A DNA stretch of 64,000 bases from Escherichia phage Turkey5. The position numbers and the translations under genes were made by a program. Every line of letters begins with the position of its first letter. Position 1 is the stretch's first letter. Below are positions 1 through 64,000 of this stretch, piece after piece. Below the pieces are notes generated by a model. It was not told the origin of the DNA, did not search any database, and saw only the letters and a list, made by a program, of their open reading frames with translations. The stretch lies in the sequence record PQ471516.1. One strand, given 5' to 3'.

Positions 1-215
1 GGACGGATATTTTTAAAAATTTTTTCAGTACTGAATTTTGGGCGTAACTATGCACCCGGTGGGCTTGAGTCTTTCTCGACTTGATGGAACTATTATACAG
101 TACTGAAAAAATAAAGCAATACCATAAACGCAAAAAGTTTTAATTAATTTGCTTGTTATCCTGGGGCGTATTGTGGTACTATAGTTCAGTACTGAGAAAG
201 TGCGTTTACCTGCTA

Positions 216-292
216 GGGTGCGGGAGTGTATCCTTTTTTTATATCTTGAATTTTGGGCGTAATTCCGCACCCTCTGGGGTTTCCGCTTTCTC
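216..292. repeat. Inverted repeat AGGGTGCGG...CCGCACCCT flanking ~45 bp; member of a dispersed 'GGGTGCR..GTGTATC' / 'TGCACCCGGTGGG' element family
   Basis: Perfect 9-bp arms read directly; related copies near 51-63, 2461-2535, 5041-5053, 9631-9660, 11293-11320, 13371-13400, 16678-16710, 18940-18965. Confidence 0.5.
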
Positions 293-607
293 GCGTCTAT
301 GTAGTAATTATACGCTTTTTCAGGATCAAGTCAATACCTAAAAACAAAATAATTGAAAATAATTTAACGCGTTTAAACGGCCCGTAAAGCCCTGGAATGA
401 TTGGAATGGTGCAAATGTATAGCTTAGGTGTATTAATGCGTTAGAATGCGTCTGAGGCCGTTTTACGGGGTATAGGGATGATTTGGTGGATTGATTCAGT
501 ACTGAATGATAGTACTACTATATAGAAAGATAGTTCCCCTGGATGGTTGCAGTACTGAATGATAGTTCCCCTATATAGAGAGAAAACTATTTTAAAAGTA
601 CATGTAG

Positions 608-680
608 AAAGTACTTGCAAACTAAGTTTAACGGCGTATAATGTTTTACATCGAGAGCGGGAACACTTCCCGCTACATAT
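608..680 (+). promoter_or_regulatory. Early-type promoter cassette: TTGCAA (-35) N16 TATAAT (-10) followed by stem-loop GCGGGAA-N4-TTCCCGC (PeSL-like)
   Basis: Sigma70-like hexamers with near-consensus spacing; hairpin between -10 and RBS; same cassette recurs more than 30 times in 0.6-19.5 kb. Confidence 0.7.
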
Positions 681-697
681 TACGAGAGATTAAAACG

Positions 698-1060
698 ATG
701 GCGACTCAAATCACTAAAATTATTGCTAACCTGGTTAACTTCCGCGACGAGATGAAAGATCTTCCGGCTGAAACGGTAAAAATTCACATCGCAGCTTATC
801 GGGAACTTATTGCAATGTTGCCGCTTAAGCGTGAACAATACGCCGCTACCGTGATGCTTGATGCGATGATCCATAAGATGATCGCCAGTGATTTGACGAT
901 GGTTTATCAGTACATGGGCGAAAAATTCTCGGTGTATAGTAAACCAGTACCAGGAATGGAAAGTACAGAAGTATTACACGGTTTAAATTTAAAACAAGAT
1001 GCATGGGATAATATGCCTCGTTTCCTGGTATGGGCTGACAGTGGCAAAATTTACGAATAA
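698..1060 (+). CDS. hypothetical protein (121 aa)
   Basis: ATG at 698 after promoter/stem-loop cassette; the track ORF's upstream ATG lies inside the -10 box (TATAATG) and is rejected. Confidence 0.6.
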   Translation: MATQITKIIANLVNFRDEMKDLPAETVKIHIAAYRELIAMLPLKREQYAATVMLDAMIHKMIASDLTMVYQYMGEKFSVYSKPVPGMESTEVLHGLNLKQDAWDNMPRFLVWADSGKIYE

Positions 1061-1069
1061 GTTTAATAA

Positions 1070-1135
1070 AGTACTTGCATACTAAGTTAAAACAAGTATA
1101 ATACTTTCTATCAGGTGGGGAATAGTTCCCCACTA
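1070..1135 (+). promoter_or_regulatory. Promoter + stem-loop cassette (TTGCAT N16 TATAAT; GGTGGGGAA-TAGT-TCCCCAC)
   Basis: Same cassette architecture as at 608-680. Confidence 0.65.
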
Positions 1136-1154
1136 TAATTAAGAGATTAATTTT

Positions 1155-1388
1155 ATGAGTACTATTTTAACTGTTTCTCAATCCGTTGCACTGACTGACC
1201 TATTAAACGCTTTAAGCCGTTGCACTGAGGTTGGCTTGTTTGATGTGGTTGACGTTGCACCGGACGTTATTAATCATTTTTGTGATGCGATGGAAGAATG
1301 TAAGGAAGATGATAGCCGTATGATGGCGGTCGCCTTTGAGGAAGTACAGCCAGGTGAGATCAAAGGTTTACCAGTACTGAAAAAATAG
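1155..1388 (+). CDS. hypothetical protein (77 aa)
   Basis: ORF directly downstream of promoter cassette with purine-rich RBS (AAGAGATTAATTTT-ATG). Confidence 0.65.
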   Translation: MSTILTVSQSVALTDLLNALSRCTEVGLFDVVDVAPDVINHFCDAMEECKEDDSRMMAVAFEEVQPGEIKGLPVLKK

Positions 1389-1470
1389 TACTTGCAAACT
1401 AAGTTTAAAAGCGTATAATACTTTACATCAGGTGGGGAATAGTTCCCCACTATATAAGAGGATTAAAAAA

Positions 1471-61511: not shown

Positions 61512-61774
61512 TGGATATACAATCTCAATTACAATTGTTAACAGTGCTTGAAGATTCTGCGTTTCAGGTTGTATCAGATATAATCAAATCACTCCCACCT
61601 GGAACTAAAGTACGTGTTAGAGAGAAGAGTTATGATACTTTCGAAATAGTTGAACAGGAATTAACTGTAAAAAAAGTAACTTATTATGACTCATCATTAT
61701 GTATTCAGTGTGAGGATAAAGACGAGATGTTATTGTATTATAATCAACACACAGATATAGAGGTAATATCATGA
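61511..61774 (+). CDS. hypothetical protein (87 aa)
   Basis: ATG 61511 overlapping upstream stop (TAATGG). Confidence 0.55.
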   Translation: MDIQSQLQLLTVLEDSAFQVVSDIIKSLPPGTKVRVREKSYDTFEIVEQELTVKKVTYYDSSLCIQCEDKDEMLLYYNQHTDIEVIS

Positions 61775-62913
61775 CACATTTACAAATATACGAAGACTTA
61801 ATGCACTTGTGCAAAACAAATGAAGCATTTTATTATGTTGATCATAAAAGTCCGGCTGGTGGTACATACCGTGTATTCTCATATCGTCTGGCTTCTTATA
61901 CTGATTTCAGTCTTCCCAATGCACTGGAAACACGTGGTTCTATGTGGGAAATTGATGAAGATGGTGAAATGATTCGTTGTGCAGCAAGAACAATGGAAAA
62001 GTTCTTCAATGCTTACGAGAACCCATTCACTATGTTCAGTTCAGATACGACTTGTGAAGATATTTCGGTAGCGATGCCTAAACTTGACGGTTCAATCATC
62101 AGTACATTTCGTGATAACGATGGTGAAATCCGTTGTAAATCACACACTTCCTTGTCATCTGACCATGCAATTAACAGTACTCGACTATTGAACGAGAACC
62201 GTAATTTGTATGATTATGTAGACGAAGCAGACCGTTTGGGTTATACTGTGAATCTGGAGTATACAAGTCCAGAGTACCGAATAGTATTACCATATCAAGT
62301 AGAACAATTATTTGTACTCAATGTTCGTCATCGTAAAAGTGGTGAGTTGTTATGCGGAGCAGCACTACGTAAGAAGTTCCCTTGTTTAGCACAATACAGT
62401 ACTAATATGACGGGTAATAACATATGTTCATCATTTCCGGTGCGTTCTACCTTCAAAGAAAGTGTAGAAGAAGTCCGTAAAATGGTTGACATTGAGGGGT
62501 TTGTGTGCATCCTAAATAATGGTACAATGTGTAAAATTAAAACGGATTGGTATTGCTCCTTGCATTTAACAAAGGATAGTATTATCATAGATTCCCATTT
62601 ATATGAAGCTGTATTAAATGGTAGTAGTGATGACCTAAAGCAGTTGTTCAGTACTGATGCATATGCTATGCAGAAGATATTAAAAATGGAACAACATGTA
62701 TTTGGATGCTATAATGCTTTACAAGATGAGGTAGAAAGCTTCGTCCAACAATACAAGCACTTGGAGCGAAAGGAATTCGCAATGAAGGTTCAGGAATGTC
62801 TTAAGAATGAACTGAACCGTCAGGGCTTGGCCTTTGCGTTGTACAACGGTAAAGTGGTGAATTATAAAGAAACTTTATTGAAGTACTACAAAGATGTACT
62901 AAAGGATTTTTAG
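61771..62913 (+). CDS. rnlA: RNA ligase 1 (T4 Rnl1-type ATP-dependent RNA ligase)
   Basis: Along-length similarity to T4 RNA ligase 1 as I recall it: 'GGTYRVFSYRLASYTDFSLPNALETRG', 'MEKFFNAYENPFTM', nucleotidyltransferase motif I 'KLDGS', 'YRIVLPYQ', 'FVLNVR', 'KIKTDWYCSLHLTK', 'GSSDDLKQLF'. Confidence 0.9.
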   Translation: MTHLQIYEDLMHLCKTNEAFYYVDHKSPAGGTYRVFSYRLASYTDFSLPNALETRGSMWEIDEDGEMIRCAARTMEKFFNAYENPFTMFSSDTTCEDISVAMPKLDGSIISTFRDNDGEIRCKSHTSLSSDHAINSTRLLNENRNLYDYVDEADRLGYTVNLEYTSPEYRIVLPYQVEQLFVLNVRHRKSGELLCGAALRKKFPCLAQYSTNMTGNNICSSFPVRSTFKESVEEVRKMVDIEGFVCILNNGTMCKIKTDWYCSLHLTKDSIIIDSHLYEAVLNGSSDDLKQLFSTDAYAMQKILKMEQHVFGCYNALQDEVESFVQQYKHLERKEFAMKVQECLKNELNRQGLAFALYNGKVVNYKETLLKYYKDVLKDF

Positions 62914-62942
62914 TACTAACTAGCCTAGCACAAGGAGAAGTG

Positions 62943-63197
62943 ATGGCTAAACCTAAGTATAAAAATGACGGTTCCCTTTCTCCGACCGAGTTCAGGAAAA
63001 TACAACAAGATATCGATGAATTACAGCACAAACGCTCAAAGAAAGGTGTGAAGATTAGTAAGAAAAGAATCGAGAATACTTTTGGGTGTAGTAGTACTGA
63101 ATACAAGAAGAAGAGGAAACCAAAAGACGTGCAACCGAGAATACATGATGTGTCTCGACATACGTCTAAGCGTGAAAACAAATTCGATCCACTATAA
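62943..63197 (+). CDS. small basic protein (84 aa), Lys/Arg-rich
   Basis: ATG 62943 after RBS CAAGGAGAAG. Confidence 0.55.
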   Translation: MAKPKYKNDGSLSPTEFRKIQQDIDELQHKRSKKGVKISKKRIENTFGCSSTEYKKKRKPKDVQPRIHDVSRHTSKRENKFDPL

Positions 63198-63206
63198 GGA
63201 GTTCAT

Positions 63207-63437
63207 ATGAAAGTTGAAGTTCAGCATAGTATTGTACAAGATATGTCCGTTGTGAAATTTCTATCATTGAAAGATTATTTCAGATGCATCAAGTTCCTAG
63301 AAGAATCGCAACTACAGTGGACACCGTTGAAGTACAGTTCATCCAATGATACAGCCAGTATTCGTTGTGATGAATCTGTACTTGTGAAAATCTCTAAGAG
63401 ATTTGGGGTAGGTAAAGTTAATGAGCACAGTAAGTGA
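63207..63437 (+). CDS. hypothetical protein (76 aa)
   Basis: RBS TAAGGAG. Confidence 0.6.
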   Translation: MKVEVQHSIVQDMSVVKFLSLKDYFRCIKFLEESQLQWTPLKYSSSNDTASIRCDESVLVKISKRFGVGKVNEHSK

Positions 63438-63675
63438 TCTAAAATACTACAACAAAACTGCGGAAACGTTTATTAATCATTTATATGATGAATTTAGTCG
63501 TATCCGCAAGGAATATACTGGTAAATGTATTTTATATTGTTCTTATCATAGTGGTGGAATTGAACGTGCTTACATTACTAAAGTAAAGTTTTCTGATGAC
63601 TATCAATTACTCTTTGAATTAGATAATTGTTTCGTTATTGAAGCTAGTTTGATAATGGATGTACTGGATAATTGA
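63421..63675 (+). CDS. hypothetical protein (84 aa)
   Basis: Overlaps upstream gene 3' end. Confidence 0.55.
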   Translation: MSTVSDLKYYNKTAETFINHLYDEFSRIRKEYTGKCILYCSYHSGGIERAYITKVKFSDDYQLLFELDNCFVIEASLIMDVLDN

Positions 63676-63681
63676 GGACAT

Positions 63682-63996
63682 ATGAATAAAGAACTTGCAC
63701 ATGAAGGTATCGAAAAGTTAAAGTACATTGAAAAGGAACTAATAGAATCCATTGAATCAATGGTCGAAGATTACGTTTTCGATTTTAAGAAAACATTGAT
63801 TGGATGTAAAGTTAAATGCTGGGATCATACTATCAGAGAATGGTTCAGTACTATTATTCTTGATGTTAAAGTATCTCGTACTGCTATTGGTAACTTAGTA
63901 AATGGTGAATGTTTTGTATACACTGAATACAATAACGGAACACGACACCTTTCAAAAGGATGGCACAGACTCGAAGATGTAGAATTCATCGAGTAA
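63682..63996 (+). CDS. hypothetical protein (104 aa)
   Basis: RBS TGAGGACAT. Confidence 0.6.
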   Translation: MNKELAHEGIEKLKYIEKELIESIESMVEDYVFDFKKTLIGCKVKCWDHTIREWFSTIILDVKVSRTAIGNLVNGECFVYTEYNNGTRHLSKGWHRLEDVEFIE

Positions 63997-64000
63997 TAAG

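Follow-up and report, generated by a model that had tools for sequence, protein, structure and literature searches.

AGTACT, a highly iterated word of Rak2-like jumbo phages that may be read on one strand

Introduction

This report concerns a stretch of 64,000 nucleotides from Escherichia phage Turkey5 (sequence record PQ471516.1), referred to throughout as the window, and the palindromic hexamer AGTACT, which is its commonest hexamer, above every A/T-rich word. The DNA is that of a Rak2/121Q-like jumbo coliphage of the genus Asteriusvirus, and the nearest record, phage vB_EcoM_JNE01 (JNE01 in the following), is 95-98% identical to the window; the whole JNE01 genome was assembled and comprises 355,583 bp. 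The plausible genes of the window all lie on the plus strand and are mostly small, and scans of the window found no Rfam families and no tRNAs. With respect to AGTACT and to its half-word AGTAC, counted where it occurs on one strand only, the window is laid out as follows:

1-20308, no strand assigned: terminal-repeat part; the direct terminal repeat of phage vB_Ec-M-J (1-21525) maps to window ~1-20.8 kb
20309-23216, minus strand: zone A, starting from the inner terminal-repeat boundary; 0 AGTACT, 2 top-strand-only and 8 bottom-strand-only AGTAC
23217-25000, no strand assigned: central AT-rich patch between zones A and B, GC 0.31-0.32, with the densest AGTACT cluster of the window
24500-30926, plus strand: zone B, with top-strand half-words from ~24.5 kb; no AGTACT in 26035-30926, the largest gap of the genome
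30927-64000, no strand assigned: right part of the window; 126 AGTACT (3.8 per kb), 125 of them in open reading frames (ORFs)

AGTACT is the commonest hexamer of the window

According to a first-pass annotation made from the sequence alone, AGTACT is strongly over-represented throughout the window, with about 17 sites in the first 2.3 kb and a cluster of three within 23215-23255. Exact counting bore this out: the 64,000 bases hold 275 copies, one per 233 bp, the figure of 17 is exact, and the clustered sites start at 23217, 23231 and 23238. The number compares with 20.3 +/- 4.4 copies (maximum 32) in 100 dinucleotide-preserving shuffles of the window and with 21 and 20 copies under order-0 and order-1 models, an over-representation of 13.5-fold where a ScaI-type restriction target would be expected to be avoided. 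Unmasked Markov models expect 56, 113 and 238 copies at orders 2, 3 and 4, a climb due to the AGTACT copies themselves, which account for the majority of AGTAC and GTACT occurrences. Once the k-mers that overlap AGTACT sites had been dropped from parameter estimation, the expectation was 31, 34 and 37 at these orders, corresponding to 9.0-, 8.1- and 7.5-fold enrichment (z ~40), and high-order models were therefore rejected as an explanation of the excess, their apparent success being a self-counting artefact. Comparison with a third-order expectation, which the first-pass annotation had recommended, leaves the word 2.4-fold enriched (z = 15) even without masking.

Among the 18 words that differ from AGTACT by one mismatch, 17 occur at 0.99-3.7 times their expectation in the window, the sole lower one being AGGACT (0.71-fold). 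Flanking preferences are weak, symmetric and mutually independent, with C at -1 in 44% and G at +1 in 45% of sites (giving CAGTACTG 55 times) and an information content of at most 0.33 bit. AGTACT is also the commonest hexamer of JNE01, with 1000 copies against 119 expected, or one per 355 bp; its 10-kb bins hold 13-67 copies each against ~3.3 expected, each gene of at least 1 kb contains at least one, and about 860 of the 1000 sites lie within genes. Spacing in JNE01 is near-Poisson (coefficient of variation 1.07), and no periodic or helical spacing was found there except codon periodicity.

Within the window, density is highest in the terminal-repeat part (130 sites, 6.4 per kb), and the terminal repeat is the density peak in both Asteriusvirus and phage CBB. 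Intergenic DNA makes up 5.2 kb of this part and contains 65 of its sites (12.5 per kb), which lie within early promoter cassettes of sigma70-like type, while beyond 23.3 kb no intergenic site occurs, including the 1.6 kb of intergenic DNA in 30927-64000, against a coding rate of 3.6 per kb (Poisson P = 0.002 for 23.3-64 kb).

The occurrence both in promoters and within coding regions, as described at the first pass, was likewise found, with 204 of the 275 sites inside ORFs and 68 intergenic. The coding sites fall into frames 0, 1 and 2 as 89, 49 and 66; a synonymous-codon shuffle predicts 65 coding sites and a codon-order shuffle 28, each frame being ~3-4-fold above the former and 6-10-fold above the latter. 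In JNE01, site density is 2.7 per kb in plus-strand genes and 2.3 per kb in minus-strand genes, so that the proposed test of frame and strand distribution found the word in all three frames and in genes of both strands. Ser-Thr dipeptides are encoded as AGT-ACT in 304 of 547 cases (56%) where codon usage predicts 15%, whereas the mirror control, Thr-Ser encoded as ACT-AGT, reaches 7%. In addition, the Ser-Thr dipeptide is 1.6-fold over-represented and Thr-Ser is not, which indicates that AGTACT shapes protein sequence besides codon choice.

Neither codon usage nor promoter cassettes explain a word that is found in every frame, in genes of either orientation and between genes. Codon usage and tRNA supply were ruled out by the all-frame enrichment, the intergenic sites and the mirror dipeptide control. 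A dispersed promoter-cassette repeat, which the first-pass annotation had named as a possible source of all copies, was rejected as well, with extended flank homology (AAAGTACTTG) in only 19 of the 275 sites and 204 sites coding. An artefact of composition, codon usage, tRNA supply or cassettes could draw on the order-4 expectation of 238, on the 19 sites in cassette context and on the Ser and Thr tRNAs that the phage encodes, but masked third- and fourth-order models expect only 34-37 copies, and together with the frame, strand, dipeptide and coding figures given above this makes it practically out of the question.

Retention between related phages

Between the window and JNE01, 95.8% of AGTACT sites are kept, against 85.1% for composition-permuted hexamers (p = 8e-8); the corresponding values are 92.3% and 74.7% for CRJP21 (p = 2e-5), and 54% and 30.7% for vB_Ec-M-J (p = 0.005). 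Loss of the exact word is 2-4 times slower than that of hexamers matched in composition, its one-off neighbours and the other NGTACN words show background retention, and gains of AGTACT are about equal to losses. Judged from these alignments, the exact hexamer is under purifying selection. Orthologues of JNE01 and RaK2 (68% amino-acid identity, 12.8k aligned codons) contain 86 and 87 AGTACT, with 26 at shared positions against 0.2 expected by chance, and at conserved Ser-Thr dipeptides AGTACT is used in ~67% of cases in JNE01 and in RaK2, nearly independently. Turnover at constant density implies that the pressure is continuous and genome-wide, and that it acts on density rather than on fixed loci.

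The same turnover could be claimed for a reading without function, in which AGTACT would accumulate by biased mismatch repair or gene conversion from a site-specific enzyme, as proposed for very-short-patch repair in E. coli and for the highly iterated palindrome 1 of cyanobacteria (HIP1, GCGATCGC), a word that published work connects with methyltransferases and repair (PMC6604393). The AGTACT sites have arisen through point substitutions in contexts that are unrelated, their turnover is high, and slower loss with balanced gain and loss would fit a fixation bias equally well; unlike around a conversion sink, however, the one-mutation neighbours are not depleted but 1-3.7-fold enriched, and the lack of depletion among these precursors rules out a signature of the very-short-patch type. 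Moreover, a neutral bias would yield neither conserved palindrome-free polar zones at a fixed position nor promoter slots (both described below), it would still require an AGTACT-specific phage enzyme, and a 13-fold enrichment far exceeds any repair-bias effect known to us. We consider this reading improbable.

A recombination hotspot or an association with cassette boundaries had also been suggested. Homology breakpoints are indeed nearer to AGTACT than local random positions are (median 39.5 against 71 nt, p = 0.007), and this proximity is what stands of the suggestion; it is, however, confounded, as breakpoints and sites both concentrate in intergenic cassettes, and within genes the sites are evenly spread.

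Occurrence across phages and hosts

For the comparison between phages, 50-kb samples were used per genome, with hosts as recorded in the annotation, and gave the following AGTACT counts:

RaK2 (Klebsiella): 114 observed, 10.8 expected
GAP32 (Cronobacter): 114 observed, 14.2 expected
CBB (Pectobacterium): 112 observed, 15.7 expected
BF (Serratia): 120 observed, 15.0 expected
XaC1 (Xanthomonas), 100-150 kb: 168 observed, 19.8 expected
XbC2 (Xanthomonas): 117 observed, 17.1 expected
PA5oct (Pseudomonas): 3 observed, 14.3 expected
XacN1 (Xanthomonas), 150-200 kb: 0 observed, 9.2 expected
Atu_ph07 (Agrobacterium): 3 observed, 6.3 expected
T4 (E. coli): 12 observed, 8.8 expected

AGTACT is the top hexamer in the samples of RaK2, GAP32, CBB, BF, XaC1 and XbC2, and it ranks first by both count and z-score in the window, in JNE01 and in seven other samples of the clade. 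Every Rak2-like genus tested, i.e. Asterius-, Alcyoneus-, Mimas- and Eneladusvirus together with XaC1 and XbC2, shows 7-10-fold enrichment; the trait is absent from the more distant relatives PA5oct, XacN1 and Atu_ph07 as well as from T4 and E. coli, and Acinetobacter phage B9 is depleted in AGTACT. E. coli K-12 contains 6 copies per 100 kb and is thus 47-fold sparser than the phage. The AGTACT trait follows the phage lineage, not the host, and the richness of XaC1 and XbC2 on a non-enterobacterial host favours a phage-encoded factor over a host factor. XaC1 is also rich in the non-palindromic GGTACT (94 against 11 expected, with 42 copies of its complement AGTACC), which hints at lineage-specific dialects or at a polarity of the word.

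That a conserved host protein binds AGTACT and is titrated or recruited by the phage would be suggested by SlmA, whose binding sequence GTGAGTACTCAC has AGTACT as its central hexamer with flanks GTG...CAC, and most AGTACT-rich phages infect Enterobacterales. However, GTNAGTACTNAC has no copy in the window and 3 copies in JNE01, the base seen least often at -1 is G, and GAGTACTC is found 3 times against 55 for CAGTACTG, so that with the required flanks missing SlmA titration was ruled out. The two phages recorded from Xanthomonas are equally rich, and the polar zones described next oppose a symmetric dimer of the TetR type; a host factor is thus highly improbable.

Strand-polar zones next to the terminal repeat

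The window holds the two longest stretches of the 355-kb genome without AGTACT, at 20309-23216 (zone A) and 26035-30926 (within zone B), and for a gap of 4.9 kb the Poisson expectation is 0.013. The eight bottom-strand AGTAC of zone A all read TGTACT on the top strand, some of them arising from paralogous Gly-Val-Leu motifs. Between the zones, the central patch has 10 AGTACT in 23.0-24.0 kb, three of them within 27 bp (23217-23243), and a tandem AGTACTAGTACT at 23297-23308. In 26035-30926, 36 top-strand AGTAC are followed by A, C or G (25, 9 and 2 cases) in all frames, AGTACT is absent, GTACT occurs once, and AGTACA is the commonest hexamer. Ser-Thr codons of zone B are AGT-ACA in 8 of 12 cases and never AGT-ACT, compared with AGT-ACT in 16 of 23 cases over the next 9 kb. 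Zone B is the sole segment of its type in JNE01, and between the window and JNE01 51 of its 52 half-words are conserved against 87% of all 5-mers (p = 0.011), the sixth base never becoming T. As GTACT is kept off one strand in zone B even outside the palindrome, the unit that is read appears to be the oriented pentamer AGTAC. This pattern suggests that AGTAC is the functional unit and that AGTACT represents AGTAC on both strands.

The site-free stretches, for which a DNA match exists only in JNE01, could be taken for foreign insertions, and this was ruled out by syntenic homologues and by the same state in CRJP21 and vB_Ec-M-J. Proteins of zone B have syntenic homologues in all other Asteriusvirus genomes at 24-27% identity. 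In CRJP21, the syntenic 7 kb is non-alignable and its proteins are ~27% identical, and it contains 0 AGTACT, ~39 top-strand half-words and 0 bottom-strand ones. The succession in vB_Ec-M-J, where the zone B proteins are likewise only ~27% identical, reads:

1-21525, annotated terminal repeat: AGTACT 5-9 per kb; top- and bottom-strand-only AGTAC rare
22-26 kb, zone A: AGTACT 0, top-strand-only AGTAC 1, bottom-strand-only 8
26-29 kb, patch: AGTACT 14; single-strand AGTAC mixed
29-37 kb, zone B: AGTACT 0, top-strand-only AGTAC 51, bottom-strand-only 0

Beyond 37 kb, the AGTACT density of vB_Ec-M-J is back to normal. Over 20-70 kb from the left end, top-strand AGTAC is in excess by ~2:1, and the strands are balanced beyond. 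A switch of GC or AT skew at the central patch was not seen.

The same region, window 20500-36000, carries arrays of paralogous small genes, with families of ~75-85 aa at 20.5-25.6 kb and of 120-200 aa at 26.5-35.3 kb. These arrays are hypervariable among Asteriusvirus lineages (~27% protein identity, with flanks of 80-93% DNA identity). At the terminal-repeat boundary, window 20208-20370 contains two direct copies of ~80 bp, each with TTAGTACTGATGCATTTTAAATTTTATGCAT.

Primase template sites are a possible, though unlikely, source of such polarity. AGTAC would then be the recognition site of the T4-gp61-type primase of the clade, the palindrome would prime both strands for forks coming from either side, and zones A and B would reflect forks that leave an origin within the patch (23.2-25 kb) in opposite directions. 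Known sites are GTC for T7 and GTT for T4, T7 primase uses extended pentanucleotide sites, and AGTAC, which contains 5'-GTA-3' of the 5'-GTN-3' type, behaves as a strand-specific pentamer. The clade encodes homologues of gp61 (JNE01 187957-189006) and gp41, and the bottom-strand words to the left and top-strand words to the right of the patch correspond to the lagging-strand templates of diverging forks, an outcome with a prior chance of 50%. Primase sites, however, are normally frequent by chance, so that an 8-13-fold enrichment with reshaped proteins is out of proportion, and the model offers no reason why sites on the leading-strand template should be barred from zone B. The primase reading explains neither the fixed promoter slots nor the density peak in the terminal repeat, conservation of half-words was not detected elsewhere than in zone B, the skew switch is lacking at the patch, and PA5oct, XacN1 and Atu_ph07 share the primase family and lack the trait.

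Promoter-associated sites

Of 50 sigma70-like promoters in window 1-24 kb, 31 carry AGTACT at stereotyped positions, of which the following are examples:

610-642, plus strand: slot 1; AGTACT abuts and overlaps the -35 (AGTACTTGCAA), and TATAAT follows after a 16-nt spacer
4673-4705, plus strand: AGTACT in both slots, at the -35 (4673) and directly upstream of the -10 (4693; AGTACTGTATAAT)
7600-7635, plus strand: third type, AGTACTATTGACA ... AGTACTGGCATAAT, in which one site closely precedes the -35 and another the -10

The arrangement abutting the -35 (AGTACTTGCAA) was found in 14 promoters of the window, the -10 slot is filled in 17 (AGTACTGTATAAT or AGTACTGGCATAAT), and in 4 promoters AGTACT stands just upstream of the -35. 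These positions suggest that AGTACT has been co-opted for regulation in the immediate-early class, although they may also stem from cassette duplication.

Several repeated elements accompany these promoters. A six-copy cassette family lies on the plus strand at window 2395-2530, 9563-9698, 11229-11364, 13301-13436, 16611-16746 and 18868-19003; each cassette consists of a sigma70-like promoter (TTGACT-N17-TATTAT or CATAAT) followed by ~45 nt of conserved sequence, CATTGAGAGATA..TCACTAGCCCAyAGGGTGCATAAGTGTATCTAT. Its core CCCACNGGGTGC occurs in 10 copies against 0.09 expected, inverted core copies are located at 52, 267, 2522 and 5044, no Rfam match was obtained, and the family may represent small RNAs. 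Most intergenic regions of window 1-20300 also contain a short GC-rich stem-loop (GGGGAAT(A/G)GTTCCCC and variants) between early promoter and ribosome-binding site.

The promoter sites bear on another unlikely alternative, to which we give slightly less credit than to the primase, namely that AGTACT is the operator of a symmetric dimeric phage protein, a global repressor or nucleoid-type protein that coats the genome and shuts early promoters. A palindrome with symmetric flanks would suit such a protein, as would the two stereotyped core-promoter positions in 31 of the 50 promoter-like sites, the confinement of intergenic sites to the early region with none at later promoters, and the conservation of the exact hexamer where half-words elsewhere are not conserved. 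In zone B, however, GTACT is barred outside the palindrome as well, and AGTAC is enriched and conserved on one strand. An all-or-none specificity with neutral one-off variants would be unusual for a regulator, ~860 of the 1000 JNE01 sites lie in genes with near-Poisson spacing, the promoter positions may reflect duplicated cassettes, and no helix-turn-helix protein was found among the early ORFs tested.

Genes that may encode a reader

A Dam-family methyltransferase, as predicted by the first-pass annotation, is encoded within a small block of the window:

54626-55168, plus strand: protein X, 180 aa, invariant upstream neighbour of the methyltransferase
55185-55712, plus strand: small Dam-family adenine methyltransferase, 175 aa, Pfam PF05869, E = 2.7e-33; candidate for recognising the word
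55709-56248, plus strand: cytidylyltransferase-like gene; its start overlaps the methyltransferase stop codon, and it is syntenic with the methyltransferase across the clade

The methyltransferase is the only ORF with a (D/N)PPY motif found in the JNE01 genome, and we agree with the earlier remark that the usual GATC specificity of Dam would not explain AGTACT. Protein X was found in exactly 69 phage records, all within the AGTACT-rich clade; it has no Pfam match, is of unknown function in PHROGs, gave an AlphaFold2 model with pLDDT 60, and a Foldseek search against PDB returned nothing below E = 0.001, so that a role of protein X as nuclease or reader found no support from these four sources. 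Protein X, the methyltransferase and the nucleotidyltransferase belong to a block of six genes with synteny across all AGTACT-rich lineages, and the 54.6-56.2 kb block is our prime candidate for the recognising enzyme, with the primase and a helicase-nuclease as further candidate readers. As a predictor of the trait, the methyltransferase family fails outside the clade, where the closest homologue, that of Acinetobacter phage B9, belongs to an AGTACT-depleted phage.

No DNA-binding domain was found in 30 ORFs of the window and 6 JNE01 ORFs just past the window end. Domains above the Pfam cut-off were a GNAT acetyltransferase (11888-12244), T4 RNA ligase 1 (61771-62913) and the Dam-family methyltransferase in the window, and polynucleotide kinase/phosphatase and metallophosphoesterase in the JNE01 ORFs past its end; the remaining matches, e.g. 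to protein kinase and RNase H, were sub-threshold. The T4-type RNA ligase 1 (window 61771-62913) and the polynucleotide kinase/phosphatase just beyond (JNE01 18141-19085) constitute, to judge from their domains, a tRNA-repair module typical of anticodon-nuclease defence.

The methyltransferase also raises the question of an RNA signal, in which AGUAC(U) in transcripts would be the target of a small PCIF1-like adenine methylase or of an RNA-binding factor. RNA action has been proposed for small subgroup-2.2 methylases by Iyer et al. (PMC7824862); in addition, the genes of the window lie nearly all on the plus strand, and the word of zone B is confined to the sense strand. Genome-wide, however, half-words are found 451 times in sense and 466 times in antisense orientation, with the bottom-strand word equally enriched, zone A has antisense polarity, many sites are located upstream of the -35, and the sense strand is strongly A-rich while the flanks show symmetry. 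We regard an RNA signal as very unlikely.

Discussion

We propose that AGTACT is a clade-specific highly iterated word, the AGTAC of which would be read on one strand by a phage-encoded enzyme or DNA-tracking machine, and we assign this reading a probability of about 0.4. The density of AGTACT would be held by selection acting on the DNA itself, a sequence-exact enzyme or tracking machine of the phage would read oriented AGTAC on one strand, and the palindrome would be the cheapest way to put AGTAC on both. Copies would come and go while the density is held at ~3 per kb genome-wide and at 6-7 per kb in the terminal repeat, i.e. at the DNA ends. With phage DNA ~47-fold denser in the word than host DNA, this could provide a mark of identity or protection that serves whichever way the DNA is approached, in the manner of a Chi-like signal acting both ways or of densely spaced methyl marks (GATC in E. 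coli), and the two fixed early-promoter slots flanking the -35 and -10 would reflect additional regulatory co-option. The one-strand-only word directly inward of the Asteriusvirus terminal repeat implies that such a reader is polar. That a dedicated reader exists, that it is encoded by the phage and what role it has is what we infer from the frequency, conservation and distribution of the word.

Somewhat more tentative is the further suggestion that the word constitutes a private, strand-read code of self-identity, by which phage DNA might be told from host DNA or a polar process be directed from the terminal-repeat boundary, and which would be the first such word system in a virus. Candidates for the polar process would be genome entry, end protection, replication start or duplication of the terminal repeat. 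Such a code, with AGTAC for the most part in the form of AGTACT, would pervade promoters, the choice of codons and the proteins themselves, and its polarity zones would indicate the place at which the reader acts. The first-pass annotation had offered a binding site for a phage factor, a recombination hotspot or a modification target; a lineage-specific factor that recognises the word agrees with our data, which make no choice among the three.

Several points weigh against a one-strand reader encoded by the phage. Strict polar zones occur only in Asteriusvirus, CBB (Mimasvirus) having none and RaK2 only a faint hint, and the symmetric flanks (C at -1, G at +1) are those that a dimer would give. 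Half-words outside zone B are only ~2-fold enriched and not detectably conserved, which fits a hexamer-specific reader better. On sequence alone, biased gene conversion is indistinguishable from purifying selection; likewise, protection, methylation and binding do not appear directly in such data, from which a reader protein is postulated. Concerning the candidate genes, characterised members of the methyltransferase family (those of phage T1 and the Dam of Stx phages) methylate GATC, and no solved relatives of the methyltransferase were found. The co-occurrence of the gene block with the trait amounts to a single phylogenetic event and therefore carries little weight. Finally, small subgroup-2.2 adenine methylases may act on RNA (Iyer et al., PMC7824862).

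Among known word systems, the closest parallel is found in HIP1, whose function is open and which is methyltransferase-linked and occurs once per 1131 bp in Synechocystis (PMC6604393), a density comparable to that of AGTACT. Both are short palindromes that form the most over-represented word, populate coding and non-coding DNA, spread by substitution and not as mobile repeats, and are kept by selection. AGTACT differs in being a hexamer of 33% GC in a virus (CGATCG occurs 0 times in the window), and in its coexistence with a purge of 22 palindromes, with fixed promoter slots and with strand-polar zones of half-words. In the window, 27 palindromes of 6 bp are at zero (summed expectation 127), and in the 355-kb genome of JNE01 22 are (summed expectation 546); the purge hits GC-rich palindromes, with GTGCAC, ACGCGT, CACGTG and CCTAGG spared, and the AT-rich GAATTC and GATATC are not avoided. 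A still stronger avoidance than in the clade of the window was seen in XacN1 at 150-200 kb, where GATC occurs 0 times against 221 expected and 28 hexamer palindromes are missing (summed expectation 332), AGTACT included.

Chi (GCTGGTGG, read by RecBCD; in B. subtilis the 5-mer AGCGG) and KOPS (GGGNAGGG, read by FtsK) are non-palindromic and show a genome-wide skew with replication direction. The phage word resembles them as an exact short word that appears to be strand-read, whose inverse is counter-selected regionally (zone B and the bias over 20-70 kb) and which could tell self DNA by its density; unlike them, most copies are palindromes and hence bidirectional, and polarity is limited to the stretch directly inward of the terminal repeat. 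The E. coli Chi sequence GCTGGTGG itself occurs on the plus strand of the window at 6682, 10957, 11466, 12416, 13402, 15787, 17195, 18773 and 18996, and also at 61855, giving 10 copies on the plus against 1 on the minus strand where <1 would be expected, with a cluster in the terminal-repeat region; in JNE01 the numbers are 18 (plus) and 7 (minus), and most of these copies belong to that same region. This cluster suggests protection of the DNA end against RecBCD.

In E. coli, GATC occurs about once per 243 bp and serves, through Dam, as a strand and identity mark for MutH and SeqA. A dense palindrome and a Dam-family methyltransferase are common to both cases, but at 50% GC GATC needs no enrichment, and in the phage it is mildly under-represented (138 against 201 expected). 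The recognition site of ScaI and Eco255I is identical to AGTACT, and selection runs in the opposite direction, the site being 8-13-fold enriched and not avoided. Promoter-early stem-loop cassettes (PeSLs) of T4-type phages, reportedly described by Arbiol and colleagues in 2010 and linked to modular gene shuffling, resemble the repeated early-promoter cassettes with a GC-rich stem-loop that precede most small early genes of 1-20 kb and have breakpoints nearby; PeSLs, however, are not defined by AGTACT, and no more than a few dozen of the 275 sites can be ascribed to cassettes.

A further group of words, ACCAGT, TACCAG and CCAGTTAC, is over-represented in the tail-fibre region (JNE01 100-150 kb, structural genes on the minus strand; ACCAGT 110 against 21 expected) and was also seen in the samples of GAP32, CBB and XbC2; these are probably coding repeats.

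Our literature search returned no report that links AGTACT to jumbo phages or ScaI to these phages, and AGTACT is not mentioned in the papers on CBB, XacN1 and PA5oct or in the comparative paper on jumbo phages (PMC7824862). What is new here is an iterated word system in a virus, alongside extreme palindrome avoidance and with conserved polarity zones at the terminal-repeat boundary.

Phages are textbook avoiders of palindromes, and this clade bends its codon choice and dipeptide content toward a single one, which implies a strong cis-acting system in phages of ~350 kb in which more than 80% of genes are of unknown function. Members of the clade are under development for therapy against E. coli, Klebsiella, Salmonella and plant pathogens. 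As a practical consequence, ScaI should cut this DNA into ~1000 pieces or not at all, and AGTACT offers a simple diagnostic by which metagenomes could be screened for clade members and for DNA of recent acquisition. Should the word prove to signal methylation or priming, a new enzyme specificity would come to light. If it is a self-mark, it would provide a handle on how unmodified jumbo-phage DNA is told from host DNA, including a survival of the first-entering terminal DNA of the T5 type during host DNA destruction. The AGTACT word of these phages would also constitute a second, experimentally tractable system for the HIP1 problem.

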